DNA from: Candidatus Poribacteria bacterium
GTDB taxonomy: Bacteria > Poribacteria > WGA-4E > WGA-3G
DNA: 32,000 bases
Assembly (NCBI GenBank): GCA_964291315.2
Contig: OZ219753.1
Span: 1,462,768 to 1,494,767, forward strand
Reading direction: 5' to 3'
Shown in pieces: positions 2,960 through 23,410 of this stretch (the stretch's first letter is position 1; the number at the start of each line of letters is the position of its first letter). The notes under the pieces were generated by a model, which saw only the letters and a program-made list of their open reading frames with translations, did no database searches and was not told the origin of the DNA. Position numbers and translations under genes: made by a program.

Positions 2960-3071
2960 AATTGGTCTCCTTAATAGTAGTCTGTCGTAAATGTTAAAAA
3001 TAGAGAGAGGTTTCAGCGGATAACAGTTCCGCCCTTTGGCCCCCGGCCATTAGCAAATAGTAGCGATAAAA

Positions 3072-4061
3072 TTAACTGCGTGCCTGCAAACGCGCGATCT
3101 CCTCTTGGAGTCGGGCAATTTCTAATTCTGCTTTCTGGCGTGCAACGACTTGCTGTTCGGCGTGTGTTTCGGCCTGCTGCGCCCGTGCGGCTTGTTGTTC
3201 GGCGTGTGTTTCGGCTTGCTGCGCCCGTGCGGCTTGTTGTTCGGCGTGTGTTTCGGCTTGCTGCGCCCGTGCGGTTTGCTGTTCGGCGTGTGTTTCGGCC
3301 TGCTGCGCCCGTGCGGTTTGCTGTTCGGCGTGTGTTTCGGCCTGCTGCGCCCGTGTTTCGGCTTGCTCAGCACGCTCAGTTGCTGACTCGGCAGGAGTTT
3401 GCAGCCACTTACCTGCAACCGGGTCATAAATCCCTAAACCCACTTCATTACCAGTTGCGAAGTTATCGTCCCCTTCAAAATATTCACTTGCATCTGGGTC
3501 ATAAATTCCCACGCCTATAGCATCGACATGGAAATCTAAACCGAGGGCAGTAGAATGGACACTTCCGTCTGTCCCTGGCGAGATAGCCACATACCAGCCA
3601 TCAATCAAAGTAAATCCCATGAGAGACGATGGTAAGTATAGCCCCTCCACATCGTACAAGAAATAGTCTTGGATTCCCAATAAAGCATAGAGTTCCATCT
3701 TGCGACTCAAGTCGTTACGATAGGTGCTTTTGCTGGAGAACTCCATCGCGAAATCAGGCGCTTTTCCCTCCTTCCAGACGAGATACGTCCGCCGGGGTTT
3801 CTTACCTAAGCCGAAAGCAACTAGGGCATCTGGCGAGATCGACTTACGTGGATCGCCCTCGACATAATACATGAGGATATCCCCAGAAACATAAACTTCC
3901 GGCATATCTTTAAAATGTGCATCAAGGGCTGCTAAGGTCCGCGTGAGGATACGTCTGTGAAGGTCGCTAACCGCCATAGGTTTTCCATCCGAGTCGGGAT
4001 AAAGTTCCGCCTCCTCTGTAGGGGCATAAGGGATTTGGAGTCGGTGTCGATAGTTTTCCAT
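3072..4061 (-). CDS. Uma2-family (DUF820) putative restriction-type endonuclease with repeat-expanded coiled-coil C-terminus
   Basis: The N-terminal ~130 aa match the Uma2 pattern (SDGKPMAVSDLH..., PDALVAFG..., PDFAMEFSSKST = PD-(D/E)xK-like, LGIQDYFLYD). The C-terminus is AQQAETHAEQQxAR repeats followed by ELEIARLQEEIARLQ. An AAGGAGGG RBS is present. Confidence 0.8.
   Translation of the reverse strand: MENYRHRLQIPYAPTEEAELYPDSDGKPMAVSDLHRRILTRTLAALDAHFKDMPEVYVSGDILMYYVEGDPRKSISPDALVAFGLGKKPRRTYLVWKEGKAPDFAMEFSSKSTYRNDLSRKMELYALLGIQDYFLYDVEGLYLPSSLMGFTLIDGWYVAISPGTDGSVHSTALGLDFHVDAIGVGIYDPDASEYFEGDDNFATGNEVGLGIYDPVAGKWLQTPAESATERAEQAETRAQQAETHAEQQTARAQQAETHAEQQTARAQQAETHAEQQAARAQQAETHAEQQAARAQQAETHAEQQVVARQKAELEIARLQEEIARLQARS
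3138..3371 (-). repeat. in-frame tandem repeat, 42-bp unit x5 (plus a partial unit) inside the Uma2 CDS
   Basis: TTCGGCGTGTGTTTCGG recurs at 3156, 3198, 3240, 3282 and 3324, an exact 42-nt period. The unit encodes the 14-aa repeat AQQAETHAEQQ(T/A)AR. Confidence 0.95.
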
Positions 4062-4114
4062 GGAGATCCCTCCTTTTTTGTTTCATTCTATTTTCTGTGT
4101 AAACCGGTGTTCAA

Positions 4115-5287
4115 CTATTCAGGCGGTCTATAGCTGGCATCAATCCACCCACGTTGTTTACCGCTTTCAACAGCGGCATTGATGAAGTGGACACCGCGTG
4201 CCCCGTCTTGGACGGTCGGAAAATCTGTGTCAAATTCGCCTGGTGCCTCGCCTGCAATTTTTGCTGACATTGTCCGCGCAGCGTTAACATAGATATTCGC
4301 GAACGCCTCAATAAACGCCTCAGGGTGTCCGAAGGGTATCCGTGTATTGTGCTGAACGACCTCTGCCAAATAGTCGTTACCGCGCTTGTAGACCTGTTCG
4401 GGGCGGTCCGGAAATCGGACGTAGAGATAGTTTGGGTTCTCCTGCTGCCATTCTAAGGAGGCATCGGTGCCGTAGACGCGGATACGGAGGTTGTTTTCCT
4501 CACCTACTGAGATTTGCGAGGCATAAAGCACGCCGCGCACCCCATTTTCATAATGTACCAATAGGTTGCCATCATCTTCTAACAGACGTCCCTCTACAAA
4601 CGTGGTCATGTCGGCACATAGTTCTTCGATGTCGAGCCCAGTAATATAATGCGCCAAATTTTCTGCATGAGAACCAATATCTCCGATGCACGAAGAGGCA
4701 CCGGCTTGCTTGGGATCAGTGCGCCAGACGGCTTGTTTCGCGCCTTCGTCTTCCAAAAATGTGGCGAGCCATCCCTGTGGATATTCTACAACGATCTTCC
4801 GAAGTGTTCCGAGTTTCCCTTCTTTCACAAGTTGGCGCGCCTGCTTCACCATGGGGTAGCCGGTATAATTGTGCGTGAGGGCGAAGACGACATCATGCTC
4901 TTCGACGAGACGGCAGAGGATCTCGGCATCGGCAACAGTGGTCGTCATAGGTTTATCACAAACGATGTGAAAACCCGCCTCAATAAAGGTTTTAGCGACA
5001 TCGAAATGCACATGATTTGGGGTTACAATTGAGACAAAGTCAATACGTTCGTCTTCGGAAAGTTGTCTCTCTTTTTCTGCCATTTCCTTATAGGAGCCAT
5101 AAACCCTATTTGGATCTAAGAAGAGTTCAGCCCCTTGCTGGCGAGATTTTTCGGGAGAGGATGAGAATGCCCCGGCGACGAGGTCTATTTCCCCATCAAG
5201 CGCCGCGGCTTTTCGATGCACTGCACCGATGAACGCATCAGGACCCCCACCCACCATGCCATAACGGATTTTTCTACCAAGTGGCAT
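4115..5287 (-). CDS. Gfo/Idh/MocA family oxidoreductase
   Basis: N-terminal Rossmann motif IRYGMVGGGPDAFIG. A conserved (E/D)KP motif is present (IVCDKPMT). Length is typical at 390 aa. Confidence 0.9.
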   Translation of the reverse strand: MPLGRKIRYGMVGGGPDAFIGAVHRKAAALDGEIDLVAGAFSSSPEKSRQQGAELFLDPNRVYGSYKEMAEKERQLSEDERIDFVSIVTPNHVHFDVAKTFIEAGFHIVCDKPMTTTVADAEILCRLVEEHDVVFALTHNYTGYPMVKQARQLVKEGKLGTLRKIVVEYPQGWLATFLEDEGAKQAVWRTDPKQAGASSCIGDIGSHAENLAHYITGLDIEELCADMTTFVEGRLLEDDGNLLVHYENGVRGVLYASQISVGEENNLRIRVYGTDASLEWQQENPNYLYVRFPDRPEQVYKRGNDYLAEVVQHNTRIPFGHPEAFIEAFANIYVNAARTMSAKIAGEAPGEFDTDFPTVQDGARGVHFINAAVESGKQRGWIDASYRPPE

Positions 5288-5344
5288 CTTGTGTAATTTC
5301 TCCTTTGTTGTTTGAACAGATATTTTGATTCTATCTATATTATC

Positions 5345-7093
5345 TCATATCTTATCCTTTTTTTCAAGATCTTTTGAGGCATTGGTCTGCTTTCCACGCC
5401 CCGATTTCGCGTTGTGATGAGGCTGTGATTGGTCTGTAATAACCGTCTCCTCGCCGAGCATGTCGATGATTTTTACGGCTACGCGGGCATCACGGCGCGG
5501 AAGCGTTACCCTATATTGCCCCTCAACAAAATCGGACTTTCTCTCTGGCACATCACTCTCAACAATTGTGAAATGCTCGCCACTATAGTCTGCGTCAATC
5601 AGAACACAATCAATCTGTGCACGAAAGTCACCCAGCTGTTCGTCAAAGATAGTGCGGTCTAGCTCCATCCGTGCCAAGATGCTCGGGCTTAGGTAATCTG
5701 ACAACGTAATCTTGACGATGAGCCCCACTCTTTCAAAGCTAACCTCTGCTTCAGCAGGGGCATACGTCGTGATACCTTCGCGTTGAATATCACGAACAAT
5801 GAGCTTGTTAATCGGACGATGCCGGTTGGCTCTATCAAGTTCTGCTTGTATGCCGACTTCACTGCCGTTGCACAAGACTGTGATGTTGCGGGTCTCGTCT
5901 GGCGAGTTTCGGAGTTCGTCTTTGATGAGCTGGATATCCAAGCGTGTGAGCGGTTTTCCGAGATCAGCGATTTTGACCAGCGTGCCATCGAGGGTGCCGT
6001 CAAAGAAGGCGGCTTTCCTGTCGGTTTGCACGCCGTATTTAGCGATGAGGATCTGTCTGAGTTCGTGCTGGGTCTGAAAATCGTAGTTATTGATGCGGTA
6101 GTGTGCGATGCCGCGGGTTTGGTGGCTGCTGTTTTGTATTCGTTTGAGAGTTGTCTGTATGGCACCTTTATTGAGGTCAGCGGCGATCCAGCGTCTGCCG
6201 AGTTTGTCGGCTACAGCGGGGGTTGTGCCGCTGCCGACAAAGCAGTCGAGAACAATGGAGTCTTCATTCGTTGATGCGTTAAGAATACGGTCAAGCAGGG
6301 CCTCAGGCTTTTGCGTAGGGTAGTCTTCTCTTTCTTTAGACACATTAATGATGGGTTTTATGTCGTCCCACGTGTCTCTGATATATACGTCTGCAAAATA
6401 GCGACCTTTTTCATCTACCTGTTCATTAAAGAAGGGTTTCTCATAAAAGATACGTTCTTGTAAAGTATGGTGTACATATTTGCTTGACTTAGCATAAAAT
6501 AATAATACATCGTGTTTTCGAGGCCAGGAATTTTTTCCAACTCCGCCTGTACGATAAGACCATATTATTTCATTTTTAAAATTGTCTTCACCAAAAACTT
6601 CATCCAGCAGAAATCTCAAATGATGGGTTTTGCGCCAGTCACAATGTAGATAGAGACTCCCTTTTTCGCTGAGGAGTTCACGCATCAAGAGGAGTCTTTC
6701 ATACATAAATTGGAGGTAGTTGTCATTTGCCCAGATGTCGGTGTATTGTGTCTGCTCAATAACAGTGTGGCCTTCACCTTCTAAGTTCCTCTGATCACCG
6801 CGTAATTTTACTTTTCGCACATAATCTGCCCCGCTAGCAAATGGGGGATCGATATAAATAAGGTCTATCTTCCCACGGAAACCCTGCACAAGAAGTGTGG
6901 AGAGGATCTCCTTGTTATCTCCGTGAAAAATCAGGTTGGGGCCTTCCAAAAATTTATTGTAAGTCGGCTCTCTCTCTGGATTTTCAACGTTATAGGTTTC
7001 TATGAGTTGTGCGGGATAGGCGTTGACTGTGTCGATAGGGCGTTTGCCGACCCAGTGCAGCATCGCTCTCCCTTTAATAGGTGTGATTTTCAT
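5345..7093 (-). CDS. mod: site-specific DNA methyltransferase, beta-class N6/N4 (type III Mod-like), paralog 1
   Basis: Motif IV IYIDPPF precedes motif I LDCFVGSGTT. YPTQKPEALLDRIL is present. A long conserved C-terminal domain ends ...VAVKIIDMLGEE. A Lys-rich 28-aa tail is absent from paralog 2. Confidence 0.9.
   Translation of the reverse strand: MKITPIKGRAMLHWVGKRPIDTVNAYPAQLIETYNVENPEREPTYNKFLEGPNLIFHGDNKEILSTLLVQGFRGKIDLIYIDPPFASGADYVRKVKLRGDQRNLEGEGHTVIEQTQYTDIWANDNYLQFMYERLLLMRELLSEKGSLYLHCDWRKTHHLRFLLDEVFGEDNFKNEIIWSYRTGGVGKNSWPRKHDVLLFYAKSSKYVHHTLQERIFYEKPFFNEQVDEKGRYFADVYIRDTWDDIKPIINVSKEREDYPTQKPEALLDRILNASTNEDSIVLDCFVGSGTTPAVADKLGRRWIAADLNKGAIQTTLKRIQNSSHQTRGIAHYRINNYDFQTQHELRQILIAKYGVQTDRKAAFFDGTLDGTLVKIADLGKPLTRLDIQLIKDELRNSPDETRNITVLCNGSEVGIQAELDRANRHRPINKLIVRDIQREGITTYAPAEAEVSFERVGLIVKITLSDYLSPSILARMELDRTIFDEQLGDFRAQIDCVLIDADYSGEHFTIVESDVPERKSDFVEGQYRVTLPRRDARVAVKIIDMLGEETVITDQSQPHHNAKSGRGKQTNASKDLEKKDKI
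5390..7093 (-). repeat. copy A of a mosaic direct duplication (mod)
   Basis: 5390-6262 aligns with 7912-8784 and 6635-7093 aligns with 9178-9636, with only scattered substitutions. The central segment 6263-6634 shows no evident similarity to 8785-9177. Confidence 0.9.
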
Positions 7094-7151
7094 AAAGGTT
7101 CTCTATAATTTGTGTATTCACTTCGGAGGTTTCCAAATACCCACCGCTGTT

Positions 7152-7373
7152 TTAAGTGCTGACTTCAGCGAGTTGTTCTACCAATTCGCTCGGGTGAATT
7201 GATAGATACTCTCTGACCTCCAAATTCATCCTGTCAATTTCGGCAAGAAAACCACCGACGGACAGGCGATAATTTCGCGGATTGGTTTCGACCTCTCGGA
7301 GTTTTTCGATCTGCCTTTGAAAGTGTCTAATGCGTGCTAACGTTGCCTCAAGTTCTTGAGTGTTCCGAATCAT
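7152..7373 (-). CDS. 73-aa helical, charged hypothetical protein; partner of the upstream nucleotidyltransferase
   Basis: The ATG at 7371-7373 lies 26 nt inside the 3' end of the NTase ORF, a translational-coupling layout. The sequence MIRNTQELEATLARIRHFQRQIEKLREVE... has no HTH or enzymatic motif that I recognise. Confidence 0.45.
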   Translation of the reverse strand: MIRNTQELEATLARIRHFQRQIEKLREVETNPRNYRLSVGGFLAEIDRMNLEVREYLSIHPSELVEQLAEVST

Positions 7374-7812
7374 TATGAATCACCTCAACTATGCCGCGTC
7401 TTGTGTTGTCGCGTCTCATCTGCCAATACTCAACCGTTTCTTGTTCACTGCTGAACGCTGCCAGCTTGCGAATCCAGAAAACACTTGCCCCTAAAACATC
7501 TTGGGCATCTTGATGGTCGAAAATGAGGGCAGCTTCACCATGTACCTGATCTGCATCAAACGAATCCTCCATTAGTAGAAAGATATCTATATCACCAGGA
7601 GTAGGCTTAGCTGTCACGAAAGAGCCGAATACGATAAACCTTGCTACTTTTCCGGTACTGTTTACTAACATGTAAATACGTTCCAATCGTCGTCCAAGGA
7701 GGATTCTTTGCACACTTTTGGTACCAAAATGCTGCAAAATTTCAGTCAACGTCGCTTGATAAATCCCTATTGGGAGATCGCCTTTGTTGTCAAATTCAGG
7801 CCATTTTTTCAT
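7348..7812 (-). CDS. minimal nucleotidyltransferase-fold protein (Pol-beta superfamily, MNT/DUF6932-like)
   Basis: Signature hG[GS]-x9-D-x-D is present in FIVFGSFVTAKPTPGDIDIFLL, followed by the acidic stretch MEDSFDAD. The protein is 154 aa. It lies between the two mod paralogs. Confidence 0.7.
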   Translation of the reverse strand: MKKWPEFDNKGDLPIGIYQATLTEILQHFGTKSVQRILLGRRLERIYMLVNSTGKVARFIVFGSFVTAKPTPGDIDIFLLMEDSFDADQVHGEAALIFDHQDAQDVLGASVFWIRKLAAFSSEQETVEYWQMRRDNTRRGIVEVIHNDSEHSRT

Positions 7813-7868
7813 GTGGATTCGAGTTTAGTTTACCGTTACGTTAGTGTCCTAACAATATTTTCTTATAA

Positions 7869-7898
7869 ACTATACCACATCTACCCAGCAAAAACCAA
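7869..7898 (-). promoter_or_regulatory. candidate sigma70-type promoter with extended -10, upstream of the NTase module
   Basis: The minus strand reads TTGGTT (7893-7898), an 18-nt spacer ending in TGG, then TATAGT (7869-7874). This is about 56 nt upstream of the ATG at 7812. It is a pattern match only. Confidence 0.3.
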
Positions 7899-7911
7899 TT
7901 TCGATAACTGA

Positions 7912-9636
7912 CTTTCCACACCCCGGTTTCGCGTTGCGATGAAGCGGTCATTAGTCTGTAACAACCGTTTCCTCGCCGAGCATGTCGATGATTTTTACGG
8001 CTACGCGGGCATCAGGACGCGGAAGCGTTACCCTATATTGCCCCTCAACAAAATCAGACTTTCTCTCCGGCACATCACTCTCAACAATTGTGAAATGCTC
8101 GCCACTGTAGTCTGTGTCAATCAGAACGCAATCAATCTGTGCCCGAAAGTCGCCCAGCTGTTCGTCAAAGACAGTGCGGTCTAGCTCCATCCGTGCCAAG
8201 ATGCTCGGACTTAGATAATCTGAAAGCGTAATCTTGACGATGAGCCCCACTCTTTCAAAGCTAACCTCTGCTTCAGCGGGGGCATACGTCGTGATACCTT
8301 CGCGTTGAATATCACGAACAATGAGCTTGTTAATCGGACGATGCCGGTTGGCTCTATCAAGTTCTGCTTGTATGCCGACTTCACTGCCGTTGCACAAGAC
8401 TGTGATGTTGCGGGTCTCGTCTGGCGAGTTTCGGAGTTCATCTTTGATGAGCTGGATATCCAAGCGTGTGAGCGGTTTTCCGAGATCAGCGATTTTGACG
8501 AGCGTGCCATCCAGGGTGCCATCAAAGAAGGCGGCTTTGCGGTCGGTTTGCACGCCGTATTTAGCGATGAGGATCTGTTTAAGTTCGTGCTGGGTCTGAA
8601 AATTGTAGTTATTGATGCGGTAGTGTGCGATGCCGCGGGTTTGGTGGCTGCTGTTTTGTATGCGCTTGAGAGTTGTCTGTATGGCGCCTTTATTGAGGTC
8701 AGCGGCGATCCAGCGTCTGCCGAGTTTGTCGGCTACAGCGGGGGTTGTGCCGCTGCCGACAAAGCAGTCGAGAACAATGGAATCTTGGTTACTCGATGCT
8801 TTGAGGATACGGAAAAGAAGGTTTTCGTTTTTCTGAGTGTCAAATCCAGTTTTTTCTGAACTGAAACTCATAATTTGAATAGAGTCCATTCGGTCTATAT
8901 CACTGCAATTCCAGGTATCTTCTATCGGATATCCCGCACCCTTGGGTCTACTGCCATCTCGTCGAACATAATCATCTGCATAAGGGATATACTCCTTGTT
9001 GAAAATAAAGTTGTCCTTATTTTTTGTATAAAAGTAAATGGTATCATGGTTCCTAATCCAATTTTTGGCTTTTGTCTTATAACCTGAGATCCATCCGATA
9101 CGCCAGATGATTTCGCGTTGAAAATTATCTGAGCCAAACACCTCATCAAGAGCAAGACGGAGGTGGTGACTTTTATGCCAGTCACAATGCAGATAGAGAC
9201 TCCCTTTTTCGCTGAGGAGTTCACGCATCAAGAGGAGTCTTTCATACATAAATTGGAGGTAGTTGTCATTTGCCCAGATGTCGGTGTATTGTGTCTGCTC
9301 AATAACAGTGTGGCCTTCACCTTCTAAGTTCCTCTGTCCGCCGCGTAGTTTCACCCTTCGCACGTAATCCGCGCCACTGTCAAATGGAGGGTCGATATAA
9401 ATAAGGTCTATCTTCCCACGGAAACCCTGCACAAGAAGTGTGGAGAGGATCTCCTTGTTATCTCCGTGAAAAATCAGGTTGGGGCCTTCCAAAAATTTAT
9501 CGTAAGTCGGCTCTTTCTCTGGATTTTCAACGTTATAGGTTTCTATGAGTTGTGCGGGATAGGCGTTGACTGTGTCGATAGGGCGTTTGCCGACCCAGTG
9601 CAGCATCGCTCTCCCTTTAACAGGGTTAATTTTCAT
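7912..9636 (-). repeat. copy B of the mosaic direct duplication (mod)
   Basis: See copy A. Homology continues 39 nt past the mod2 stop codon, so 7912-7950 aligns with coding sequence of mod1. Confidence 0.9.
7951..9636 (-). CDS. mod: site-specific DNA methyltransferase, beta-class N6/N4 (type III Mod-like), paralog 2 with a different central cassette
   Basis: IYIDPPF and LDCFVGSGTT are conserved. The central ~130 aa differ from paralog 1 (IIWRIGWISGYKTKAKNW..., GFDTQKNENLLFRIL). An AAGGAG RBS is present. The stop TAA at 7951-7953 corresponds to CAA in paralog 1. Confidence 0.85.
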   Translation of the reverse strand: MKINPVKGRAMLHWVGKRPIDTVNAYPAQLIETYNVENPEKEPTYDKFLEGPNLIFHGDNKEILSTLLVQGFRGKIDLIYIDPPFDSGADYVRRVKLRGGQRNLEGEGHTVIEQTQYTDIWANDNYLQFMYERLLLMRELLSEKGSLYLHCDWHKSHHLRLALDEVFGSDNFQREIIWRIGWISGYKTKAKNWIRNHDTIYFYTKNKDNFIFNKEYIPYADDYVRRDGSRPKGAGYPIEDTWNCSDIDRMDSIQIMSFSSEKTGFDTQKNENLLFRILKASSNQDSIVLDCFVGSGTTPAVADKLGRRWIAADLNKGAIQTTLKRIQNSSHQTRGIAHYRINNYNFQTQHELKQILIAKYGVQTDRKAAFFDGTLDGTLVKIADLGKPLTRLDIQLIKDELRNSPDETRNITVLCNGSEVGIQAELDRANRHRPINKLIVRDIQREGITTYAPAEAEVSFERVGLIVKITLSDYLSPSILARMELDRTVFDEQLGDFRAQIDCVLIDTDYSGEHFTIVESDVPERKSDFVEGQYRVTLPRPDARVAVKIIDMLGEETVVTD

Positions 9637-9738
9637 GGCGAGTACTCCTTGAAACTACACCGACCCTGATAACCCGGACGCTTAATGCGATATAGTCTCT
9701 TAGAAATGAGACAGGAAATCTCGGTTAAGTGAGCATTC

Positions 9739-12402
9739 CTACGAGACTTTTACGTTCGTGTTATCATCACGAATCCATGCCAAGACTTTTTGGACGTCCG
9801 GGACATTCTCCTTCATGAATTCTGTATCCGTATAGATGATATGGTATTTGAAACGCTCATTAGATTGCAGCTGCCCTAAGCGTTCTACTGCCTTCTTTTT
9901 TGCTTCTACGCTTGGGTTCATGCGGTCCCTCTCAGACTTTATTTCCACGATATAGAATTCGCCGGTGCTTTTGACAATCACAAAATCCGGAAAATAGCGA
10001 TGATAATTACCGTCATCACCTTTGTATTCAAAGTGGAAATCGGTTTTTTTAGCGTCTGTCAAGCCCCCAGTAAATAGGAATATCTCTACATCTTCTATTG
10101 CGGTATTTAGTGATGCCAAGACAGTCTCAAAAAACTCTCGCTCGGGTTTGGTATCGAAGTTGTAAGGTGTATAGTGAAAACTAAGATTGCGTTGATCAAG
10201 CAAGACATCCGGATTGAACAGCAGCCTGTCGGTTCTCATCCGTTCGAGGTTTCTCTTTTGGATACGTAATCGGTGGATGTAGTCCCCGCGGTCATTTTTT
10301 TCAAAAAGAGGGCTCCCCTCGTCATCGTGCGTATGAATTAGCGCCAGCACTTCAGATACCTCCTCTTCAATCACGCTATAATTTTGTACCTGCCTTTCCA
10401 CTTGTTGGAACAGTGGATAGAGATGTGTGTTCGGAACTTCGGCTTCAGGATAGAGCCCTTTGAGTTTTTTGAGGGTCTGCATAAAAGGTAGGTGGTAGTT
10501 TGCGCTGATGCGTCTTGCCAACGCGTAGCAATCCGTTGTCCGGTGGACCGTCTCAACCGTGTCTGACTCGCCGATGCCAGCGAGAGGAGAGGTACCGCCC
10601 GTTCGCGTGAAACTCGGGGTCAGTAAGTTGCGAATAATCGGGGGCGGTTCTTGCACGTCGGTAGGAATGCTCAACTGGATCTCTGTGGAGGCATCTTCAT
10701 TCCGTACAACACGAGACACAAACCGAGAAATTTCTAGTTTCGGCAATGCCGTTTTACGAATACAGACCTCTATTTCTTCAGTTGCGGCGGTATGCCTGCT
10801 CAGGCTACCGAGGGTTGTACCGAAGTTTTCTTCTAATTCTTTATCTAGAATGGATCTGTTCTTTGTGTCCAAAAAGATTTTAGCAGGGAGCTTGTTGCCT
10901 TCCACCTGACGCAGACACCGCGTTGAGGCTTGTAGAACAAAGTTACTACTTGTTGTCTGTTCTTTTATCAAGGCACAGGCAAAGAGACTCGGACAATTCC
11001 AGCCCTCCACGCCTTTACCGATAAGCAATAGCACACGCTTTTGACTGTCAGGATTGTTAAGTAGGTTGAACTCGTCAATCTCCGATTGACTCGATTTTTG
11101 TGTATTGACAAGTATCTGCGCTGGGCTTTCCCCGATTTTTGCCAGAGCGTTTTCAATATGCAGTTGAGAAGTTTCTAAGTGTTCTTGAGTCTTGAAGTAG
11201 AACGCAATTTTTGCTTTTGCACCGTCGGAAAGTGTTACATCTCCGTAGTGCTCAAAAAATAGGTCTATCACGTTTTGAATAACTTCTTCCTCAGCACCAC
11301 TTCCAATATGGTAGTGAACTATCCCATGGTGAAGACTTTTAAGGATATTGTCCTTTATCCCCTCCGCAAGACTATACCATGCAACGACTTCGCGGAGCAT
11401 CTGCCGCTTATAGTATGGCGTGCCGGTGGTGTTGATAACAGCAATCACGCCTTTCTTCTCTTTGATGTAGTTAACCGTTTCACGTACCCGTTTGAGTTCC
11501 TTGTCCATCCTATTGCCGTAGGTATGGTGTGCCTCGTCCGAGAAAACCCCCAAATTCGGCAGGCTGGCGATTTTTTGGAGACGGAGGTTCGCCTCTAACG
11601 TTGCCTGTTTCTCTTTTTCGGCAAATTCCAATTCCGTTTGATTCGCGCGTCTCCTCACTTTCGACCGAAGAGCGATTTTCTCGGTGTTTGTGATAATAAC
11701 GTTGTAGGTGCTACCGGTTTGAACTTGGATTTCTTTCGCACCTGATTGCGGATAGGTGATTTTAAGGTTGGCGAGAAAGGCACGATGCAGACTAGCAGGC
11801 AGAACCTGATCAAACGGGATCTCGCTAATTTCGCGTAGACTCTCAATAATGGTTGTCCCTGGAGCAAAGACGAGGGCATTCCTCATAAATTCTCCATCCG
11901 GATAGCGCAGACCCATCGCGAATTCGGTCGCAATAATTGTGCCGATAAGCACTGTCTTGCCGGTGCCCATGGCGAGCGCAAAAATATAGCTTGGGTAAGG
12001 AAGCATTACTGCTTCGTGAACGGGATCAATCCGCTTTTGCCTGACGAATGCGGGGTCTTTTTTTATTTTTTCAATAACATCATCCACATTTTGGATCCAT
12101 TGGAGCTCGTTTGGATCCAGTGGAATGCCGAGCGCTTCAAAGAAATCCCGTTTATCCTCGCCGTAATAGTGTTTGTAGAGATCAACAATGTGTGGCGTTT
12201 TTCTCACGAGTCTCAGGAACCAATAGAGTTCCAGCGATTCGAATTGGGGGTGCCGGAGGTATTTGGGAGAAATTCGCTCTTGCGGCTCGCCCTCAAATTG
12301 ATAACGTAGTATCTCGCCGATGAGCGGGTAGTCTGGACAAGGGTATCCTTCGTCGCGCCAGCTTAGTCTGTTTTCGCGGAGTTTTTCAAAAAGGTATTGC
12401 AT
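9739..12402 (-). CDS. res: type III restriction enzyme Res-like subunit (SF2 DEAH helicase with C-terminal PD-(D/E)xK nuclease)
   Basis: Walker A is ALAMGTGKTV, motif II is VFSDEAHH and motif III is NTTGTPY. The C-terminal nuclease motif is YFPDFVIV...FYIVEIKS. Confidence 0.85.
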   Translation of the reverse strand: MQYLFEKLRENRLSWRDEGYPCPDYPLIGEILRYQFEGEPQERISPKYLRHPQFESLELYWFLRLVRKTPHIVDLYKHYYGEDKRDFFEALGIPLDPNELQWIQNVDDVIEKIKKDPAFVRQKRIDPVHEAVMLPYPSYIFALAMGTGKTVLIGTIIATEFAMGLRYPDGEFMRNALVFAPGTTIIESLREISEIPFDQVLPASLHRAFLANLKITYPQSGAKEIQVQTGSTYNVIITNTEKIALRSKVRRRANQTELEFAEKEKQATLEANLRLQKIASLPNLGVFSDEAHHTYGNRMDKELKRVRETVNYIKEKKGVIAVINTTGTPYYKRQMLREVVAWYSLAEGIKDNILKSLHHGIVHYHIGSGAEEEVIQNVIDLFFEHYGDVTLSDGAKAKIAFYFKTQEHLETSQLHIENALAKIGESPAQILVNTQKSSQSEIDEFNLLNNPDSQKRVLLLIGKGVEGWNCPSLFACALIKEQTTSSNFVLQASTRCLRQVEGNKLPAKIFLDTKNRSILDKELEENFGTTLGSLSRHTAATEEIEVCIRKTALPKLEISRFVSRVVRNEDASTEIQLSIPTDVQEPPPIIRNLLTPSFTRTGGTSPLAGIGESDTVETVHRTTDCYALARRISANYHLPFMQTLKKLKGLYPEAEVPNTHLYPLFQQVERQVQNYSVIEEEVSEVLALIHTHDDEGSPLFEKNDRGDYIHRLRIQKRNLERMRTDRLLFNPDVLLDQRNLSFHYTPYNFDTKPEREFFETVLASLNTAIEDVEIFLFTGGLTDAKKTDFHFEYKGDDGNYHRYFPDFVIVKSTGEFYIVEIKSERDRMNPSVEAKKKAVERLGQLQSNERFKYHIIYTDTEFMKENVPDVQKVLAWIRDDNTNVKVS

Positions 12403-12439
12403 TAAGCCTGTTTCCTAGTGGCGAATAATTGTTAAGAAC

Positions 12440-12763
12440 CTAAATCGAAAAGGGTTCGATAAGATTTCTGCGAAATTGTGCGAGATCTTCCGCGCCTCTA
12501 GTAGGCAGCATGTCCAAATCCCGACTATCTATAAGAATAATAGCACTCTTAAGCAAAAGATTCAATAGAAAAGCATCGGGGCACCGGAGCCATTCTGTTA
12601 TGGTTTTAACGATCTCTCGGAAATTGTTCAGAACAGTGAGGCGCGTGAAACCGAAAACTTGGGCGACACGGTCGGCGATGAATCGCACCGCTACAAGTAC
12701 CCTGAGATTTTCTGCGTCCAATGTCTTATTTTGTGGTATACTATTTGCAGAGACGAAAAGCAT
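12440..12763 (-). CDS. hypothetical small protein with a possible helix-turn-helix, upstream of res
   Basis: 107-aa ORF. The segment DRVAQVFGFTRLTVLNNFRE resembles an HTH. The antisense ORF (12510..12782, +) is Arg/Ser-rich and looks non-coding. No clear RBS is present and I recognise no family. Confidence 0.3.
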   Translation of the reverse strand: MLFVSANSIPQNKTLDAENLRVLVAVRFIADRVAQVFGFTRLTVLNNFREIVKTITEWLRCPDAFLLNLLLKSAIILIDSRDLDMLPTRGAEDLAQFRRNLIEPFSI

Positions 12764-12797
12764 TCGGCTGTTTGCGGTTTAATTTAGAGGAGGTTAT

Positions 12798-13772
12798 ATG
12801 AGCACACCCTCAGAAAGAAAGTGGGATGGATCAATTGTCCGGTATCCTGATCCGGCCATAGAAGTATTAGATCCTCGTTTTAAAAAATATACAATCGGTA
12901 ATTCCGTTGTCGAACGCTTGTGGACAGGATCGCGGTGGGCAGAGGGGCCTGCCTGGTTCGGCGATGGCGGCTATTTGCTCTGGAGCGACATTCCTAACAA
13001 TCGGATTCTAAAATGGGAGGAGTCGACAGGCGAGGTGAGCATCTATCGCGAACCCTCTAACTATAGCAATGGACATACCCGAGATCGACAGGGAAGACTT
13101 ATCAGTTGTGAACACGGGACCCGGCGCGTCACACGCACTGAATATGACGGAACAATTACTGTGGTGATGGACAGCTTTGAAGGTAAACGACTTAATGCCC
13201 CTAACGATGTGGCCGTTCATCCGGACGGACATATCTGGTTTACTGATCCAGGCTACGGCATTATGCTCAACTATGAAGGACAAGTTGCCGAATTTGAATT
13301 GCCCACCTGCGTTTATCGACTCAACCCAGATACCGGGAAGGCAACCATCGTCACCGACGAACTCGAAAAACCGAACGGTATCTGCTTTTCGCCTGACTAT
13401 GAGAAACTTTATCTCGTTGATACCGGCGCAACGCACAAAGACGGAACGCCGCGCCACCTCTTTGTCTACGACGTAATAGACGGTGAACGGTTAGGCAAAC
13501 AAGAGGTTTTTTGTGATACCGCCCCCGGTATTGCTGATGGAATTCGATGCGATGTTGACGGGAACTTGTGGGCAAGCGCGGGGTGGGCTGGCGACGGCTA
13601 CGATGGTGTACACGTCTTTGCACGCGATGGAATACGAATCGGGCAGATCCATCTTCCTGAAATTTGCGCGAATCTCTGCTTCGGCGGTGTGAAACGGAAT
13701 AGACTGTTTATGATGGGGAGTCAGTCTCTCTACTCGGTTTATGTAGAGGCACAAGGGGTTCCCTATTTTTAG
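12798..13772 (+). CDS. SMP-30/gluconolactonase/LRE family protein
   Basis: Typical beta-propeller motifs are present (AEGPAW..., LNAPNDVAVHPDGHIWFTDPGYG, PNGICFSPD, DGIRCDVDGNLW). A GGAGG RBS lies at 12788-12792. Confidence 0.85.
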   Translation: MSTPSERKWDGSIVRYPDPAIEVLDPRFKKYTIGNSVVERLWTGSRWAEGPAWFGDGGYLLWSDIPNNRILKWEESTGEVSIYREPSNYSNGHTRDRQGRLISCEHGTRRVTRTEYDGTITVVMDSFEGKRLNAPNDVAVHPDGHIWFTDPGYGIMLNYEGQVAEFELPTCVYRLNPDTGKATIVTDELEKPNGICFSPDYEKLYLVDTGATHKDGTPRHLFVYDVIDGERLGKQEVFCDTAPGIADGIRCDVDGNLWASAGWAGDGYDGVHVFARDGIRIGQIHLPEICANLCFGGVKRNRLFMMGSQSLYSVYVEAQGVPYF

Positions 13773-15073: not shown

Positions 15074-15192
15074 AGGACGTGTTTTACCGGTATTGCTTCC
15101 ATGCATCCGCGGGAAGCGAAATTTCCATATGCCGACTTCCATGCCACTCCGGTGGTTTAGAAACGCATGAACTGTTCGTAGGGAAACGTGAA

Positions 15193-16017
15193 ATGTCAAA
15201 AAAACAGATAAATGTTTTGGTTTTCGGGGCCCATCCCGACGATTGTGATATTAAAGCTGGCGGTGTCGCTGCACTGTATATGCAACAAGGGCATCGTGTT
15301 AAATTTGTTTCAGTTACAAACGGCGATGCTGGACACCACGAAATGGGCGGCGCTCCCTTAGCACAACGCCGACACGCGGAAGCACAAGCCGCAGCCGAAG
15401 TTGTCGGCATCGAATATGAGTTGTTGGACAATCACGACGGCGAACTAATGCCAACGTTAGAAAACCGTTATAAAATTATCCGCACGATTCGTGAATTCGG
15501 CCCGGATCTAATTATGACACATCGACCGAACGATTACCATCCGGATCACCGGTACACCTCAACGTTGGTGCAGGATGCAGCATATATGGTTACCGTTCCG
15601 AATGTCTGTGCACTTACACCGCATCTGGAGAAAAACCCTGTTATTGCCTATCTTAGCGACGGTTTCATGAAGCCATATCCATTCACACCGGATGTTGTTG
15701 TTGGTATTGATACTGTTATTGAGCAGAAAATTGATATGCTTCACTGCCATGTATCGCAGTTCTACGAGTGGCTTCCATACAATAGTGGAACGCTGAACAG
15801 TGTTCCTGCTGCTGATTCGGCACGCCGAGCATGGCTCGCCGAAGGACGTTTAAGGCGTTTTCGCGACCTAGCCGACCAATACCGAGATTTGCTAATAGCA
15901 CGTTATGGTGAAGAGTCAGGCTTGCAAATTGAATATGCTGAGGCGTTTGAAGGGTCTGAATACGGCTCACCACTGACTGCAGAAAATACCCTTGCCCTCT
16001 TTCCATTTTTCCAATAA
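15193..16017 (+). CDS. PIG-L/LmbE family deacetylase
   Basis: VLVFGAHPDDCDI is followed by HPDH, the zinc-site hallmarks of the family. The start was set at the ATG at 15193 (MSKKQINVLVFG). Confidence 0.85.
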   Translation: MSKKQINVLVFGAHPDDCDIKAGGVAALYMQQGHRVKFVSVTNGDAGHHEMGGAPLAQRRHAEAQAAAEVVGIEYELLDNHDGELMPTLENRYKIIRTIREFGPDLIMTHRPNDYHPDHRYTSTLVQDAAYMVTVPNVCALTPHLEKNPVIAYLSDGFMKPYPFTPDVVVGIDTVIEQKIDMLHCHVSQFYEWLPYNSGTLNSVPAADSARRAWLAEGRLRRFRDLADQYRDLLIARYGEESGLQIEYAEAFEGSEYGSPLTAENTLALFPFFQ

Positions 16018-16036
16018 GGAGTTTTGTTTTAGCCAC

Positions 16037-16297
16037 ATGCCAACAGAACAAGCCAGTGCAAGGACGCTTATGATTATCGTTAGCGTTATCGGTCTGATTT
16101 TTGCGATTGTAATGGTTATTCTCTTTTTCAATGCCGCACCCGCCCGTTCTAATATTGAGGTACATCGGACTTCGGCGGAAGACGCTGAATGTCTGAAGTG
16201 TCATCTCAGAGGCGATGAAACATCACCGACGATGCCGCATCTAAATCTTGGCAAATGCGATCTGTGCCACGGACTCTCGAAAGAGGAGCCGCGTTAG
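16037..16297 (+). CDS. small membrane-anchored di-haem c-type cytochrome (putative)
   Basis: One N-terminal TM helix is present (LMIIVSVIGLIFAIVMVILFF). There are two CXXCH motifs (CLKCH and CDLCH). The start was set at the ATG at 16037. Confidence 0.5.
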   Translation: MPTEQASARTLMIIVSVIGLIFAIVMVILFFNAAPARSNIEVHRTSAEDAECLKCHLRGDETSPTMPHLNLGKCDLCHGLSKEEPR

Positions 16298-16300
16298 ACA

Positions 16301-17236
16301 TTAGACGTGATGCCGATGTGCAGGCGCAGATTGCAGAACCGCTTTGATGCCTACCCAAGTGATACTGTTTTCTGTTTCCTGTACAACCTCAAGACATCGA
16401 AATTGATTCGCGTCCAAAATAGATTCAACTTTTGCAAGTTCTGTATCCAGTATCCCAGAGAAGATAACACATCCGGCGTGGTACAGCCGTGAAGCACAGG
16501 TTGGAATAATCGGGAGAATCACCTCGGTTAAAATATTTCCGATAATGAGGTCGTATTTCCGCTCCACGCCCTTGAGCCCATCGCAGCGAAATAAGTGGAC
16601 TCGCTGTGTAACACCGTTAGTTTCAAAATTCGCCGCTGCCACGGGAATAGCTGTTGGGTCGAGTTCAATCGCATCAACCTGTTTTGCTCCCAATTTCACA
16701 GCAGCAATGCTTAATATACCAGAGCCCGTTCCTATGTCGGCGACAGAGGCGTGTGTTTCAATCGAGCCCTCTAATAGCTCGAGAGACAGGCGAGTAGTCG
16801 GATGCTGGCCGGTTCCAAATGCCATGCCGGGGTCAAGTTGAATTACAGCGTCCGTTTTGTTTTGAGGTACATTGCCCCACGTTGGTGTGATGAGGATCCG
16901 TTTTCCGACCCGCCGCGGTAAAAAAGATGCTCTCCATGCTTCTTCCCAATTCTCGGATTTGATGGTAGTTAAATCGACAATGGCGGGGGATGCCTGGATC
17001 CCCCAACCCGGAAGTTCCGAAAGGAGATCGTGGATCCTTTCCATCCGTTTATCGGCCTGGTCATCTAACGGATAATAGGCGATGATTTTGACAGTAGAAG
17101 GGTCGCTCTCTTGGAGTTCAACGCCTGTCGCATTCAATTCAAAGAGACAACTGGCCACTGCCTCAGATGCCTCTGTGGAGGTAGTTACCGTGATTTTTTC
17201 CCAATTCATTTCACTGCTCGTAAACATCTCGTACAC
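16301..17236 (-). CDS. prmA: ribosomal protein L11 methyltransferase
   Basis: PrmA architecture with DIGTGSGILSIAAVKLGA and a typical N-terminal domain. The true start may be the internal MNWEK, 27 nt downstream. Confidence 0.9.
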   Translation of the reverse strand: MYEMFTSSEMNWEKITVTTSTEASEAVASCLFELNATGVELQESDPSTVKIIAYYPLDDQADKRMERIHDLLSELPGWGIQASPAIVDLTTIKSENWEEAWRASFLPRRVGKRILITPTWGNVPQNKTDAVIQLDPGMAFGTGQHPTTRLSLELLEGSIETHASVADIGTGSGILSIAAVKLGAKQVDAIELDPTAIPVAAANFETNGVTQRVHLFRCDGLKGVERKYDLIIGNILTEVILPIIPTCASRLYHAGCVIFSGILDTELAKVESILDANQFRCLEVVQETENSITWVGIKAVLQSAPAHRHHV

Positions 17237-17263
17237 TGTCCGAGAACGGATTATTTATGCGAC

Positions 17264-18379
17264 TTATTCGTCAGTATCGTGGCGGCCGAGCAACTTGTCA
17301 AAAAAACCACCATTTTTGCTGTGATGAGGTTCCCCACGCAGTTTTGCGAATTCTTCTAACTTTTCACGTTCAGCTGCATTTAGGTTCTTTGGTGTTTCGA
17401 TTTCTATGGAGACAATCAGATCCCCCCTATGGGTACGTCTGTAATGCGGAACGCCTTTGTTGGGAATCCGGAGTTGGGCACCGTACTGCGTGCCGGGGGG
17501 GATTTCTAACACTTCGGACCCATCAATCGCATCGACTTTGATCTTCCCTCCGAGTGCTGCTTGAATAAACGAAATTCTGGCGGATGTAAAGAGGTCGTCT
17601 TGATCGCGTTGGAAACGTTTATGCGGCGTAACATTAATCACGACAAACAGGTCCCCGGGGGGCGCACCGTTCGCCCCAGCTTCACCTTCGCTATGCAACT
17701 GGTACTTGAAACCGGTATCTACGCCTTTTTCAATATTGAGTTTGATATCGGTTGTATTTTGGACAAGACCTCTTCCGTTACAAGGTGGGCATGGATCTTG
17801 TACGACTTCTCCTTTGCCTTGACAATTAGGGCAGGTTCGAGATATTGAAAACAGGCCTTGGGATTGGCTGATCTGGCCTCTGCCATAGCATTGCGGGCAT
17901 GTTACAGGGCTTGTTCCCTCTTTAGCACCACTACCGGTGCACGACGGGCAAGATTCGATGCGCGGTACCTGAATTGTGACCTGCTTGCCGTGGATAACGT
18001 CCTCAAGTGAGACCTTAAGATCGTATTGTAAGTCTCGCCCGCGTTTAGGCGTTCGCCGGGTCGCCCCGAATCCACCGAGCAGGTCTCCAAAAATGTCTCC
18101 AAAAACTTCGTCAAAGTTCACCCCAAAGCCTCCGAGATCGCTGCCTCTGCCTTCCAATCCGGCGTGTCCAAATCTATCATAAAGTTGCCGTTTTTCAGGC
18201 GTACAGAGAACCTCGTAAGCTTCTGTCGCTTCTTTGAATTTGTTTTCGGCTTCCATATCTCCAGGATTTTTATCTGGATGAAATTTAATGGCGAGTTTGC
18301 GATAAGCCTTCTTTATCTCATCTTCATCAGCTTCACGTGTCACGTTCAGTATCTCATAATAATCGCGTTTTTGAGTCAT
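17264..18379 (-). CDS. dnaJ: molecular chaperone DnaJ
   Basis: J domain (DYYEILNV...HPDKNPGD), a G/F-rich linker, and four CxxCxGxG zinc-finger repeats. Confidence 0.97.
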
Positions 18380-18399
18380 CGGTCCTACCTTCCTATTGA

Positions 18400-19242
18400 C
18401 TACTCACCGGCATCAGCGTCACTGTTGTTTGTGCGTTCATCGACTTTTTCTGGGTCTGGCGGTCCCTGCGAAACGACTACTTGTGAGGCACGTAGAATGC
18501 GGGTGTGCAACATATACCCGCGTCGGAACTCTTCAATTACTTTACCCTCTGCGACGGCATCTGAGGGAACAGCCATCAGTGCCTCATGCCGATACGGATC
18601 AAACGATTTACCAGCAGCCTCAATCGGGGTGAGTCCGTGGTTTTTGAGCGAATCGAGCAGCTGCTTGTGAACCAATTGTACACCTTCCTTGAAGGTAGCA
18701 AGCTCCGATTGAGTATCGCTGCTTTCTACTTTTCCGTTGATACTTTGCATTGCGGCTTCGAGACTATCAAGCACCGGCACCATTCCTTCCAAAATTTCTT
18801 CGTTAGCGAATTTAAGCTTTCGCTGATAATCAGTTTCCATGCGTTTTTTGGTGTTTTCAGCCTCAGCAGCTGTCCGGAGCAGAAGGTCACGTTCAGCTTT
18901 ATATTCGTCGTGAACGTGTTGCACAGCGGTCTCCACCTCTTTTTCTAGCTCTATACGAAACAGTTCCTCCCGTTCAACTTCATATTGATTGTGCACATGT
19001 TCAACGATCTCCACCACTTCTTCCGTGACTTTTGAGTTGAGATTAGTGGACATTTCTTCAACAGGCTTGATGTGTGACTCTATCTCCTTTTTTACCTCCG
19101 ATTTGATCGTGTCAAGTGCTGTCTCTGCGATTTCACGTAGACGTATGATGAATGTTTTTTCTTCACACTCGTCAGAATCGTTGTCTGGAGTGGATTCTAT
19201 TTCTGCCTGTATTTGTACCTCTTTAGTGTCAGCCATAATCAA
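18400..19242 (-). CDS. grpE: nucleotide exchange factor GrpE with a long acidic N-terminal extension
   Basis: The C-terminal GrpE core is present ([21 protein letters not shown]...[23 protein letters not shown]). It is immediately upstream of dnaJ. Confidence 0.9.
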
Positions 19243-19306
19243 GTCCTTTTTATTTTAGTCTGTTTGTTTCTGTCGATTACAAATCCAATTTCTAGCGATA
19301 TTTCGC

Positions 19307-20035
19307 TTAACCGTGAACGGCATCAGCGAACGCTTTCATCAATTCAAAAGAGCCATTTTCTTCAAGAATGTTGCCTGTTACGACAAAATCGGTGCCTGCT
19401 GCCACCTTTTTCGCAGCAATTTCGGGGGTGCGGATGCCACCGCCAACAATTAACGGGATACTGATTTGCGCTTTCACTGTAGAGATCATCTCGTTTGGAA
19501 CCGGATGGGTTGCACCGCTGCCTGCCTCTAAGTACACCATCTGCATACCGAGATATTCTGCAGCTAAGGCGTGCGGGCCTGCTATGTCGGGTTTATTGCG
19601 CGGAATAGGTATTGTCCCACTCATAAATTCAACTGCAGTTCTGTTTCCGCCCTCGATTAACATGTAACCCGTGGAGATGGGTTCGAGTCCGTGGTGCTGT
19701 ATCCACGGGGCAGCTTTAACTTGTTCACCGATGAGATAGTTTGGGTTGCGTCCACTGATAAGACTCGTGTAGAGGATAGCATCCGCGTGGGGTGTCAAGT
19801 GCATCGAGTCACCAGGGAAGAGCACAACCGGAAGTCCTGTCTCTTGCTTGATGGCTTCTGCAATCGGATCTAAATCGTTCGTTAGAAAACTACCGCCCAA
19901 TAAAATCGCATCTGCCCCTGCTTCTTCAATCTCATGTGCAAGTTTCGCGCATTTTGCGACCTTGCACTGCTCCGGATCGAGCAAGACAAAATAGCCGGCC
20001 TTATGCCTTTTCAGAGCCTCGTTGAAGTGGTTCAT
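19307..20035 (-). CDS. geranylgeranylglyceryl/heptaprenylglyceryl phosphate synthase family protein (GGGPS/PcrB, group II-like)
   Basis: Motifs LLDPEQ, GADAILLGGS, LFPGD, ISGRNPNYLIGEQ, YLEAGSGA and GGGIRTPE are present. The start was placed at the ATG at 20035. The ORF-track start at 20053 is a TTG. Confidence 0.8.
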   Translation of the reverse strand: MNHFNEALKRHKAGYFVLLDPEQCKVAKCAKLAHEIEEAGADAILLGGSFLTNDLDPIAEAIKQETGLPVVLFPGDSMHLTPHADAILYTSLISGRNPNYLIGEQVKAAPWIQHHGLEPISTGYMLIEGGNRTAVEFMSGTIPIPRNKPDIAGPHALAAEYLGMQMVYLEAGSGATHPVPNEMISTVKAQISIPLIVGGGIRTPEIAAKKVAAGTDFVVTGNILEENGSFELMKAFADAVHG

Positions 20036-20145
20036 TACCCAATTTGATCTCAAATGCGGTCATCCCTTTTAACCGTGCTAAGTCCACACTCACATATTGC
20101 CCTTTCCGGAAGGATTTGCACGCTCTCTACTTCCCTCATAACAAA

Positions 20146-20174
20146 ATTTTACCATATTTACGCTGATTTGTCAA
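20146..20174 (-). promoter_or_regulatory. near-consensus sigma70-type promoter upstream of the GGGPS gene
   Basis: The minus strand reads TTGACA (20169-20174), a 17-nt spacer, then TAAAAT (20146-20151). This is about 110 nt upstream of the ATG at 20035. Confidence 0.5.
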
Positions 20175-20322
20175 ATTCTATTACCCCGGAGGAATACAAA
20201 ATAAGCTTCTTCTTATCGGGGTCCCCTCTTATCCGTTCGCGTCGATTTCTCTTCTTGTAGGATTTCCGGGCAGAGACCTCTTCTTTCTCTATCCAAGAAA
20301 CCGAAAACTGCATTGGCGTTTG

Positions 20323-22713: not shown

Positions 22714-22760
22714 AGACTTGACTGATTTCAGCCATGTTACGGAGTTGAGGCGGTGGAGCG

Positions 22761-23321: not shown

Positions 23322-23410
23322 AATTAAGTCCTCTGTTTTGAAAATGATATTGATAACTTCGTCTCCTGAAATTGGCGAAGACACCTACAAAACAGGTGTC
23401 TATCGTCCGG

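Follow-up and report, generated by a model that had tools for sequence, protein, structure and literature searches.

Why does one restriction operon carry two methyltransferase genes that are nearly the same at both ends and different in the middle? The question is raised by a 32,000-nt stretch of contig OZ219753.1 from Candidatus Poribacteria bacterium (the window, meaning the whole stretch analyzed), in which a single restriction gene, res, is followed by two modification genes, mod2 and mod1. The answer we favor, and consider moderately probable, is a Type III-like, res-first operon in which two mod alleles give constitutive dual-specificity restriction with one Res. From their sequences we infer that the two alleles differ in specificity, are co-expressed, and share Res. 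A second res or an extra mod was sought across the 32-kb window, and none was found. The three principal genes are:

res, 9739..12402, minus strand: 887 aa, superfamily 2 (SF2) helicase-like ATPase with a C-terminal PD-(D/E)xK nuclease motif; first in transcription order.
mod2, 7951..9636, minus strand: 561-aa beta-class N6/N4 DNA methyltransferase (MTase) in the canonical res-proximal position.
mod1, 5345..7093, minus strand: 582-aa second mod allele, intact; last in transcription order.

Two mod genes with near-identical flanks and distinct cassettes

Positions 5390-6299 matched 7912-8821 at 94.7% identity over 910 nt, and 6552-7093 matched 9096-9636 at 90.6% identity over 542 nt. A repeat search, self-BLASTN, and a sliding-window alignment agreed on both blocks, confirming the near-identical flanks around a distinct center described in the initial annotation. 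When a global alignment of mod1 and mod2 DNA was scored in a 60-nt sliding window, the N-side block (7084-6664) gave 52-60 matches of 60, dipping to 47-53 around 6874-6814, and the C-side block (6272-5462) gave 52-60. The central segment, unlike the flanks, was at background level (25-40 of 60, with many gaps). Read base by base, the two copies are homologous from the ATG (7093/9636) onward, with unrelated sequence in the preceding 67 nt; the homology stops sharply at 5390/7912, which bears out the earlier statement that it continues 39 nt past the mod2 stop. These 39 nt showed no conservation in other genomes, and they were rejected as a conserved family element on that ground; being unconserved, they mark a within-lineage duplication unit.

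Mod1 and Mod2 show 8 differences over 148 N-terminal residues and 6 over 274 residues at the C-terminus (95-98% identity outside the cassette). The cassettes themselves cannot be aligned as DNA and are 32% identical as protein. They had been called unrelated but are distant homologues, and each Mod matches Pfam N6_N4_Mtase (PF01555) in one unbroken stretch (mod2 E=2e-42, mod1 E=5e-44). Codons 149-178 and 259-277 are alignable as protein with saturated synonymous sites, so the cassette limits first proposed (6263-6634 and 8785-9177) were widened slightly, to ~6263-6649 for mod1 and ~8785-9192 for mod2. The parts of the repeat are:

mod2 N-flank, 9193..9636, minus strand: codons 1-148; N-terminal domain (NTD)-like region and MTase motifs IV-VI; aligns to 6650-7093 of mod1.
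mod2 cassette, 8785..9192, minus strand: codons 149-284; motifs VII-VIII, target recognition domain (TRD) slot, and motif X; type 'RIGWISGYKTKAKNW...DTQKNE'.
mod2 C-flank, 7954..8784, minus strand: codons 285-561; motifs I-III and a C-terminal domain of ~240 aa; aligns to 5432-6262 of mod1.
mod2 3' untranslated stretch, 7912..7950, minus strand: 39 nt homologous to the start of the mod1 read-through tail; the repeat unit ends at 7912.
mod1 cassette, 6263..6649, minus strand: codons 149-277; type 'SYRTGGVGKNSW...YPTQKPE'.

Position of the cassette within the methyltransferase

Both genes encode full-length beta-class MTases with complete catalytic motifs. MTase_III was the best PADLOC match for each (mod2 E=6e-64, mod1 E=2e-59). 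DPPF lies at aa 82-85 and FVGSGTT at aa 285-291 in Mod1 and 292-298 in Mod2, which is the beta-class motif order, and in both proteins the variable segment falls between these motifs.

The best PDB sequence match of Mod was EcoP15I Mod, at an identity of only ~16-25%. EcoP15I Mod is composed of an NTD (14-60, dimer formation), an MTase domain (62-262 and 390-516), a TRD (263-384), and a C-terminal domain (539-644) contacting Res (PMC4490356). Residues 11-206 of Mod1 aligned with 57-253 of EcoP15I, starting within the EcoP15I NTD, and Mod1 258 aligned with EcoP15I 414; residues 207-257 of Mod1 faced an EcoP15I gap (254-413) that holds the TRD. Because the gap covers the TRD, the cassette core was assigned to the EcoP15I TRD slot, and the conserved flanks correspond to the dimerization and Res-docking parts of EcoP15I.

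AlphaFold2 (AF2) models of mod1 (pLDDT 62.5) and Res (pLDDT 67.5) were of moderate confidence only. Foldseek searches with the mod1 model returned EcoP15I Mod, H. pylori Mod, and Mbo45V Mod as the best PDB folds. The top matches, 4zcf and 6k0w, covered 481-611 columns, most of the chain, and 7dsu (Mbo45V Mod) ranked 15 and 21 over ~350-365 columns; TM scores were only 0.32-0.38.

Cassette types across the mod family

A protein search with mod1 recovered a very large family of proteins of ~560 aa. Among 120 members, per-column conservation was 80-98% in the flanks and only 34-61% at mod1 aa 181-250. Cassette variation was discrete, with 56 types among 190 genes; across genomes, cassettes of one type were at least 70% identical. 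Within a type, the cassettes were more alike (median identity 85-95%) than the flanks (73-84%), with flank identity falling to 28%. The mod2 cassette type was found in 22 family members, on backbones down to 28% identical, and the mod1 type in 15. Each of the two window types is also found in other genomes in a locus with a single mod beside res: the mod2 type in locus L002 and the mod1 type in loci L161 and L162. Composition also set the two parts of the gene apart. GC content at third codon positions (GC3) was 0.33 in the mod1 cassette vs 0.55 in its flanks, and 0.39 vs 0.56 in mod2; cassette GC3 was below flank GC3 in 64 of 71 genes (p=5e-12).

Hypervariable, allele-defining across the family, and located at the EcoP15I TRD position, the central segment is probably the recognition region, as had been supposed. 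A separate observation was made in L161, where a 520-aa N6_N4 methyltransferase (L161:12913-14475, minus strand) with different N- and C-terminal parts carries a mod1-type central segment. The gene lies 1.2 kb from mod, beside two transposase genes, and its TRD could be shared between non-orthologous methyltransferases.

Uneven flank divergence and gene conversion

The flanks of mod1 and mod2 did not diverge evenly. One patch stood out:

Divergent N-flank patch, 6793..6848 (pairs with 9336-9391), minus strand: codons 82-101; 55 nt with 17 substitutions.

The proportion of synonymous differences (pS) in this patch was 0.79, vs 0 on both sides: codons 9-81 and 102-148 of the N-flank contained no synonymous difference at all (synonymous divergence, dS=0). 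The C-flank had a dS of 0.126 and a non-synonymous divergence (dN) of 0.011 (dN/dS ~0.09; 22 synonymous vs 7 non-synonymous differences). At the C-flank rate, 8.7 synonymous differences were predicted in the identical N-flank tracts; none was observed (P=1.7e-4).

Because flank dS is heterogeneous (0, 0.126, and one saturated patch), repeated gene conversion is required. A single duplication followed by one cassette replacement was rejected as insufficient for the same reason, and the earlier account of the pair as the outcome of one replacement or conversion event was abandoned. The uneven divergence indicates ongoing gene conversion, with tracts that would stop where homology fails, and the 6793-6848 patch is, judged from its substitutions, a mosaic footprint of that process. 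The mod flanks appear to be under purifying selection.

Related arrays in other genomes

Seventy-nine related loci were collected from species-representative genomes, mostly sponge-associated metagenome-assembled genomes; in 45 of the 79, res is followed by mod. Several mods stand behind one res in 4 of these 45:

L006, Poribacteria: one decayed (first copy) and two intact mods behind one res.
L010, Poribacteria: three intact mods behind one res (OY282383.1, 2466856-2488538).
L030, Limisphaerales: two mods behind one res.
L070, Gammaproteobacteria: two mods behind one res.

Within these loci the flanks were 94-99% identical in L010, L030, and L070 and 83% in L006, and the cassettes were 23-37% identical; the best flank match in any other genome was 70-93%. 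An orphan fourth mod (L011; OY282383.1, 1150492-1172198) lies 1.3 Mb from L010 with no res within 10 kb. The four mods of L010 and L011 have flanks 94-98% identical and four different cassettes. In L010 and L070 the repeat is continuous across gene junctions, and the arrays are thus true head-to-tail duplications. The L070 repeat unit (L070:9798-14204) begins within res, ~180 nt short of the stop codon, and a res fragment is left between the mods. Array size ranged from 1 to 3 mods among genomes, with partial mod fragments in L016 and L063. At three dispersed sites of another contig (OZ244048.1; L033, L034, and L035), mod copies were seen with a stop at residue 118 and the C-flank present downstream, again with no res within 10 kb. 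The stop they share could reflect a common disruption, an error of sequencing, or recoding.

These loci bear on two other explanations of the pair. Two strain variants of one mod locus might have been joined in tandem during assembly, as the source is a metagenome-derived 3.26-Mb contig and strain-level allele diversity of mod is high. The same architecture, however, recurs in four independent assemblies from three phyla. In the window itself, the copies lie 0.8 kb apart with two intact genes in the unique sequence between them, their upstream regions and 3' ends differ, and the flank differences of 4-5% are patterned rather than random. Such an artefact is therefore exceedingly improbable.

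The second explanation is an obligate Mod1-Mod2 heterodimer that would combine one TRD with the other catalytic pocket into a single composite specificity. A division of labor of this kind has precedent, since in EcoP15I one Mod protomer recognizes the site and the other methylates it (PMC4490356), and the conserved flanks of the window pair include dimer-forming regions. An obligate pair fits poorly with the three-mod array of L010 and with complete catalytic motifs in both copies. Moreover, each cassette type is the only mod in many loci and would thus function as a homodimer. We regard the obligate heterodimer as very unlikely.

Direct repeats and the fate of the array

The initial annotation took the pair as recombinational specificity switching, in which the 0.44-kb and 0.87-kb repeats would drive RecA-mediated cassette exchange or deletion, so that mod repertoires would vary between cells much as in phase variation. 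The long direct repeats, at 95-100% identity, are suited to this, and gene conversion has clearly acted on them. Arrays of 1-3 mods, the decayed copy in L006, and the fragments in L016 and L063 are what unequal crossing-over is expected to leave. The geometry of the repeats argues the other way. The mod1/mod2 repeats are direct, on one strand, and no inverted repeat pair of at least 30 nt was found in 3000-13000. A crossover between direct repeats would irreversibly delete one cassette along with the cargo genes between the copies, and a conversion tract that crossed a cassette would make the two copies alike instead of switching between them.

Nor was the machinery of a switch found. Pfam detected no recombinase or integrase domain in the scanned open reading frames (ORFs; seven at 3072-4061 and 5345-12763, and the ten largest at 15079-31444). 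Tandem Repeats Finder (minimum score 30) returned 0 rows for tandem or simple sequence repeats in 5000-12800, in agreement with the earlier remark that neither mod contains a short-repeat tract. Both mods are intact and apparently under purifying selection. A scan of metagenome contigs with mod1 found nothing closer than 49% identity. Switching was accordingly set aside as an unlikely account of the locus. Since the repeats are direct, deletion or expansion is expected rather than reversible exchange, and unequal crossing-over probably alters array size over evolutionary time, a turnover and not phase variation.

Operon layout and cargo genes

Two further genes lie between the mod copies:

DUF6932 gene, 7348..7812, minus strand: nucleotidyltransferase fold; cargo between mod2 and mod1.
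73-aa partner ORF, 7152..7373, minus strand: 26-nt overlap with the DUF6932 gene; its end lies 58 nt upstream of mod1.

All five genes (res, mod2, DUF6932, the 73-aa ORF, and mod1) share the minus strand, with intergenic gaps of no more than 138 nt. In the classical Type III order, mod is upstream of res. Here res adjoins the co-oriented mod2 in the order res to mod, as in the 45 related loci, and more distant relatives (<45% identity) have the order mod to res. An AAGGAG ribosome-binding site precedes mod2. A scan for promoters and terminators gave counts equal to those of shuffled sequence, with no terminator signal above the shuffled background.

The DUF6932 gene matched Pfam DUF6932 (E=1.5e-25) and PADLOC PDC-M63A (E=8.5e-8), and with its 73-aa partner it resembles a two-gene module of the toxin-antitoxin-like or defense-candidate kind. 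Homologues of the pair (78-86% identity) stand between res and a single mod in L045, and in L045 and L015 the 73-aa ORF has homologues (82-86% identity) at the corresponding place. The window array is unlike the others in that the DUF6932 pair sits between mod copies. Given that L045 has the pair between res and its single mod, mod1 may be the original gene and mod2 the addition.

Cargo followed by mod is in fact the family norm, as most res-first loci have 0.5-5.8 kb of unrelated genes between res and mod. Cargo types include TIR-TPR, FRG-TPR, DUF3644, AAA ATPases, DUF1016-like nucleases, a 1879-aa ORF, and the DUF6932 and 73-aa pair (cargo loci: L004-L009, L012, L015, L018-L022, L026-L032, L039, L044-L052, L063, L069, L075-L077, and L161-L164; window 7152-7812). 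From its gene content, the res-mod interval looks like an insertion slot for defense-type cargo within the operon.

Outside the operon, the region from 14.5 to 32 kb of the window contains housekeeping genes (PrmA, DnaJ, GrpE, LpxD, BamA, and LysS). A 107-aa ORF directly upstream of res (12440-12763, minus strand) matched no family of Pfam, PADLOC, or NCBIfam; near it, at 12913-12886, is a promoter-like site from the promoter and terminator scan, whose counts equaled those of shuffled sequence. On the other side of the operon, a Uma2-family gene (3072-4061, minus strand) contains a 42-nt unit repeated six times in tandem (window 3104-3397). At the protein level this is a repeat of 14 aa, AETHAEQQxARAQQ, within the coiled-coil-like C-terminal tail.

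The 3' end of mod1

The two Mods end differently, owing to one feature of mod1:

mod1 read-through tail, 5348..5431, minus strand: Q555-I582, 28 aa, Lys-rich, predicted disordered; stop at 5345-5347.

Two consecutive stops in mod2 (TAA TGA) align with CAA TCA in mod1, and other genomes also have a stop at that position, typically followed by TG. Among the 120 family members, 101 end four residues past the conserved GEET, exactly as mod2 does, and only mod1 extends, by 28 residues. Because 101 of the 120 end like mod2, the tail is a derived stop-loss in mod1. The initial annotation had mod2 losing a Lys-rich tail, which reverses the direction of change: mod1 gained a tail that is unique among the 120 members. 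In the AF2 model of mod1 the tail has a pLDDT of 25-29.

The Res protein

The motifs of Res (GxGKT at 146-150, DEAH at 289-292, and P805-D806...E820-x-K822) were invariant in 64 homologues, which are named 'restriction endonuclease subunit R' or 'DEAD/DEAH box helicase' in their source records. Pfam ResIII was matched at E=3e-5 (24.4 bits, just over the 22.5 cutoff), and the PADLOC REase model gave no match to Res. Its closest relatives (84% identity; L163 and L164) belong to single-mod loci with other cargo.

Proposed dual specificity with a single Res

Type III enzymes hemimethylate a short asymmetric site, and their ATP-dependent cleavage needs two inversely oriented unmethylated sites. In the proposed model of the window, Mod1 and Mod2 would be made together as homodimers, with mixed dimers also possible, each would methylate its own short asymmetric motif, and each could load the single Res, with DNA lacking either mark being restricted. 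Two specificities would be obtained at the cost of one nuclease gene. The array would have arisen by duplication of a mod unit that opens with the start codon and closes 39 nt beyond the stop. Repeated gene conversion would keep the flanks near-identical and Res-compatible and would halt at the cassette edges. As a source of cassettes, the family would offer a pool of at least 56 types, and recombination between the direct repeats would delete or expand the array without acting as a reversible switch.

Four features were counted in favor of dual specificity: both mods have intact motifs, the flanks are apparently under purifying selection, each cassette type serves as a sole mod elsewhere, and the regions that contact the partner Mod and Res in EcoP15I show strict conservation. 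Two Mods of probably different specificity with one Res, as first proposed, is still the best reading, supported by the one res in the window and by both types being sole mods in other loci.

Several findings weigh against this reading. The derived, disordered 28-aa tail could impair mod1, and mod1 has no AAGGAG or clear Shine-Dalgarno sequence upstream, a sign of possible poor expression. Apparent purifying selection on the flanks is inflated by gene conversion. Between genomes, dS was saturated in cassettes and flanks alike; recent cassette transfer was consequently rejected as evidence, its recency being unsupported. Cassette dN (0.05-0.07) was lower than flank dN (0.10-0.18), a sign of tighter constraint that accounts for part of the higher conservation of the cassette. 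Cassette mobility is instead supported by incongruence and composition, without a recent donor. Mixed Mod1-Mod2 dimers might form, with unpredictable behavior. Finally, Res had no match among PDB sequences, EcoP15I Res included, either singly or as a 20-sequence profile, and its AF2 model returned only generic SF2 helicase folds, with EcoP15I Res outside the top 50. Because similarity to EcoP15I Res was undetected, the system is called Type III-like, with the mechanism assumed from the architecture.

The weaknesses of mod1 suit a different explanation, in which only mod2 works with Res, mod1 being either a second copy in decay or a methyltransferase that acts on its own (orphan or regulatory). 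Besides losing both ancestral stops and gaining a tail seen in no other family member, mod1 is parted from res by cargo and lacks a clear Shine-Dalgarno sequence; a decayed copy exists in the L006 array and an orphan copy elsewhere (L011). Nevertheless, its frame is uninterrupted over 582 codons with all catalytic motifs, and the C-flank differences from mod2 are mostly synonymous (22 vs 7). Its cassette type is the sole mod beside res in L161 and L162. Cargo followed by mod is also the norm in the family, and mod1 may even be the original gene. A role for mod2 alone therefore appears improbable, and the dual-specificity operon is retained as the preferred reading.

Comparison with known systems

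The closest parallels are in Mycoplasma. M. bovis PG45 has three co-localized mod alleles (M1/M2/M3.Mbo45ORF167P) with conserved ends and a variable central TRD, attributed to duplication followed by TRD acquisition (PMC5909438), and M. agalactiae 5632 has two tandem mods (MAGa1570/1580) with one downstream res (PMC9465063). As in the window, a single res stands alongside neighboring mod paralogues (2-3 of them) whose 5' and 3' ends are conserved and whose central TRD varies. The Mycoplasma genes, however, have GA(n) tracts, phase variation, and the order mod then res, whereas here no repeat tract is present and res comes first. The M. agalactiae paralogues are ~65% identical overall, in contrast to flanks 95-98% identical with conversion footprints in the window. 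The Mod/Res lineage is also a different one, and its hosts are uncultured sponge-associated bacteria.

Alleles of the modA/modB type in Haemophilus and Neisseria have a hypervariable central TRD between conserved flanks and beside a conserved res, and it was proposed that the recognition sequence is determined by the allele type (Bayliss et al. 2006, PMC1557822). The discrete allele types and the hypervariable center are shared with the present family, but the modA/modB alleles are phase-variable alternatives at one locus between strains, and here both alleles are in one operon. In H. pylori, TRDs have moved between Type III mod genes, apparently by recombination at conserved MTase motifs (Furuta and Kobayashi 2012, PMC3467074), and the same TRD is found in non-orthologous methyltransferases (PMC3467074). 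TRD similarity incongruent with the rest of the gene is common to both cases (compare L161 and the mod2-type cassette in 28% backbones), although the H. pylori genes are at separate loci, each with its own res, rather than in tandem with one.

EcoP15I (Mod2Res1; PDB 4ZCF; PMC4490356) has the same beta-class motif order, its TRD slot at the position of the cassette, and a Res with the helicase first and the PD-ExK nuclease last, an order that the motifs of the window Res suggest for it as well. It differs in its TRD of 122 aa, compared with a slot of ~50 aa in these two alleles, in its shorter C-terminal domain, in the reversed gene order, and in its Res, to which the window Res shows no detectable sequence relationship. 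Several specificity modules per core and recombination between repeats are likewise features of the Type I hsdS shufflons, SpnD39III for example (cited in PMC10123105), which have inverted repeats, usually a recombinase, and one hsdS expressed at a time. The repeats here are direct, no recombinase was present in the scanned ORFs, and both genes are complete.

Implications for the family

Tandem mod alleles, TRD allelic series, and TRD movement have all been published, and no new principle is proposed. What is distinct is the lineage, the res-first order, the divergent Res, the absence of a phase-variation tract, the conversion footprints, and the recurrence across phyla of uncultured bacteria. 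Sponge-associated communities are known to be rich in defense genes. Tentatively, and with much less confidence than for the window itself, the observations may be joined into one reading. The res-first family, common in sponge-symbiont genomes, would be an expandable multi-specificity restriction system in which concerted evolution keeps all paralogues, orphan copies included, compatible with one Res. More than 50 cassette types would be pooled across phyla, mixed dimers might add hybrid recognition or methylation, and the res-mod interval would serve as a slot for TIR-TPR, FRG-TPR, ATPase, and DUF6932 defense cargo.

With more than 50 cassettes on one scaffold, the family could serve to map cassette sequence to recognition motif and to test mixed Mod dimers. 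If both Mods are active with one Res, the restriction repertoire of this organism would be doubled by a 1.7-kb gene and not by a whole system. The locus would then show how such a repertoire is maintained, with gene conversion homogenizing the parts for dimerization and Res docking and leaving the recognition cassettes different.

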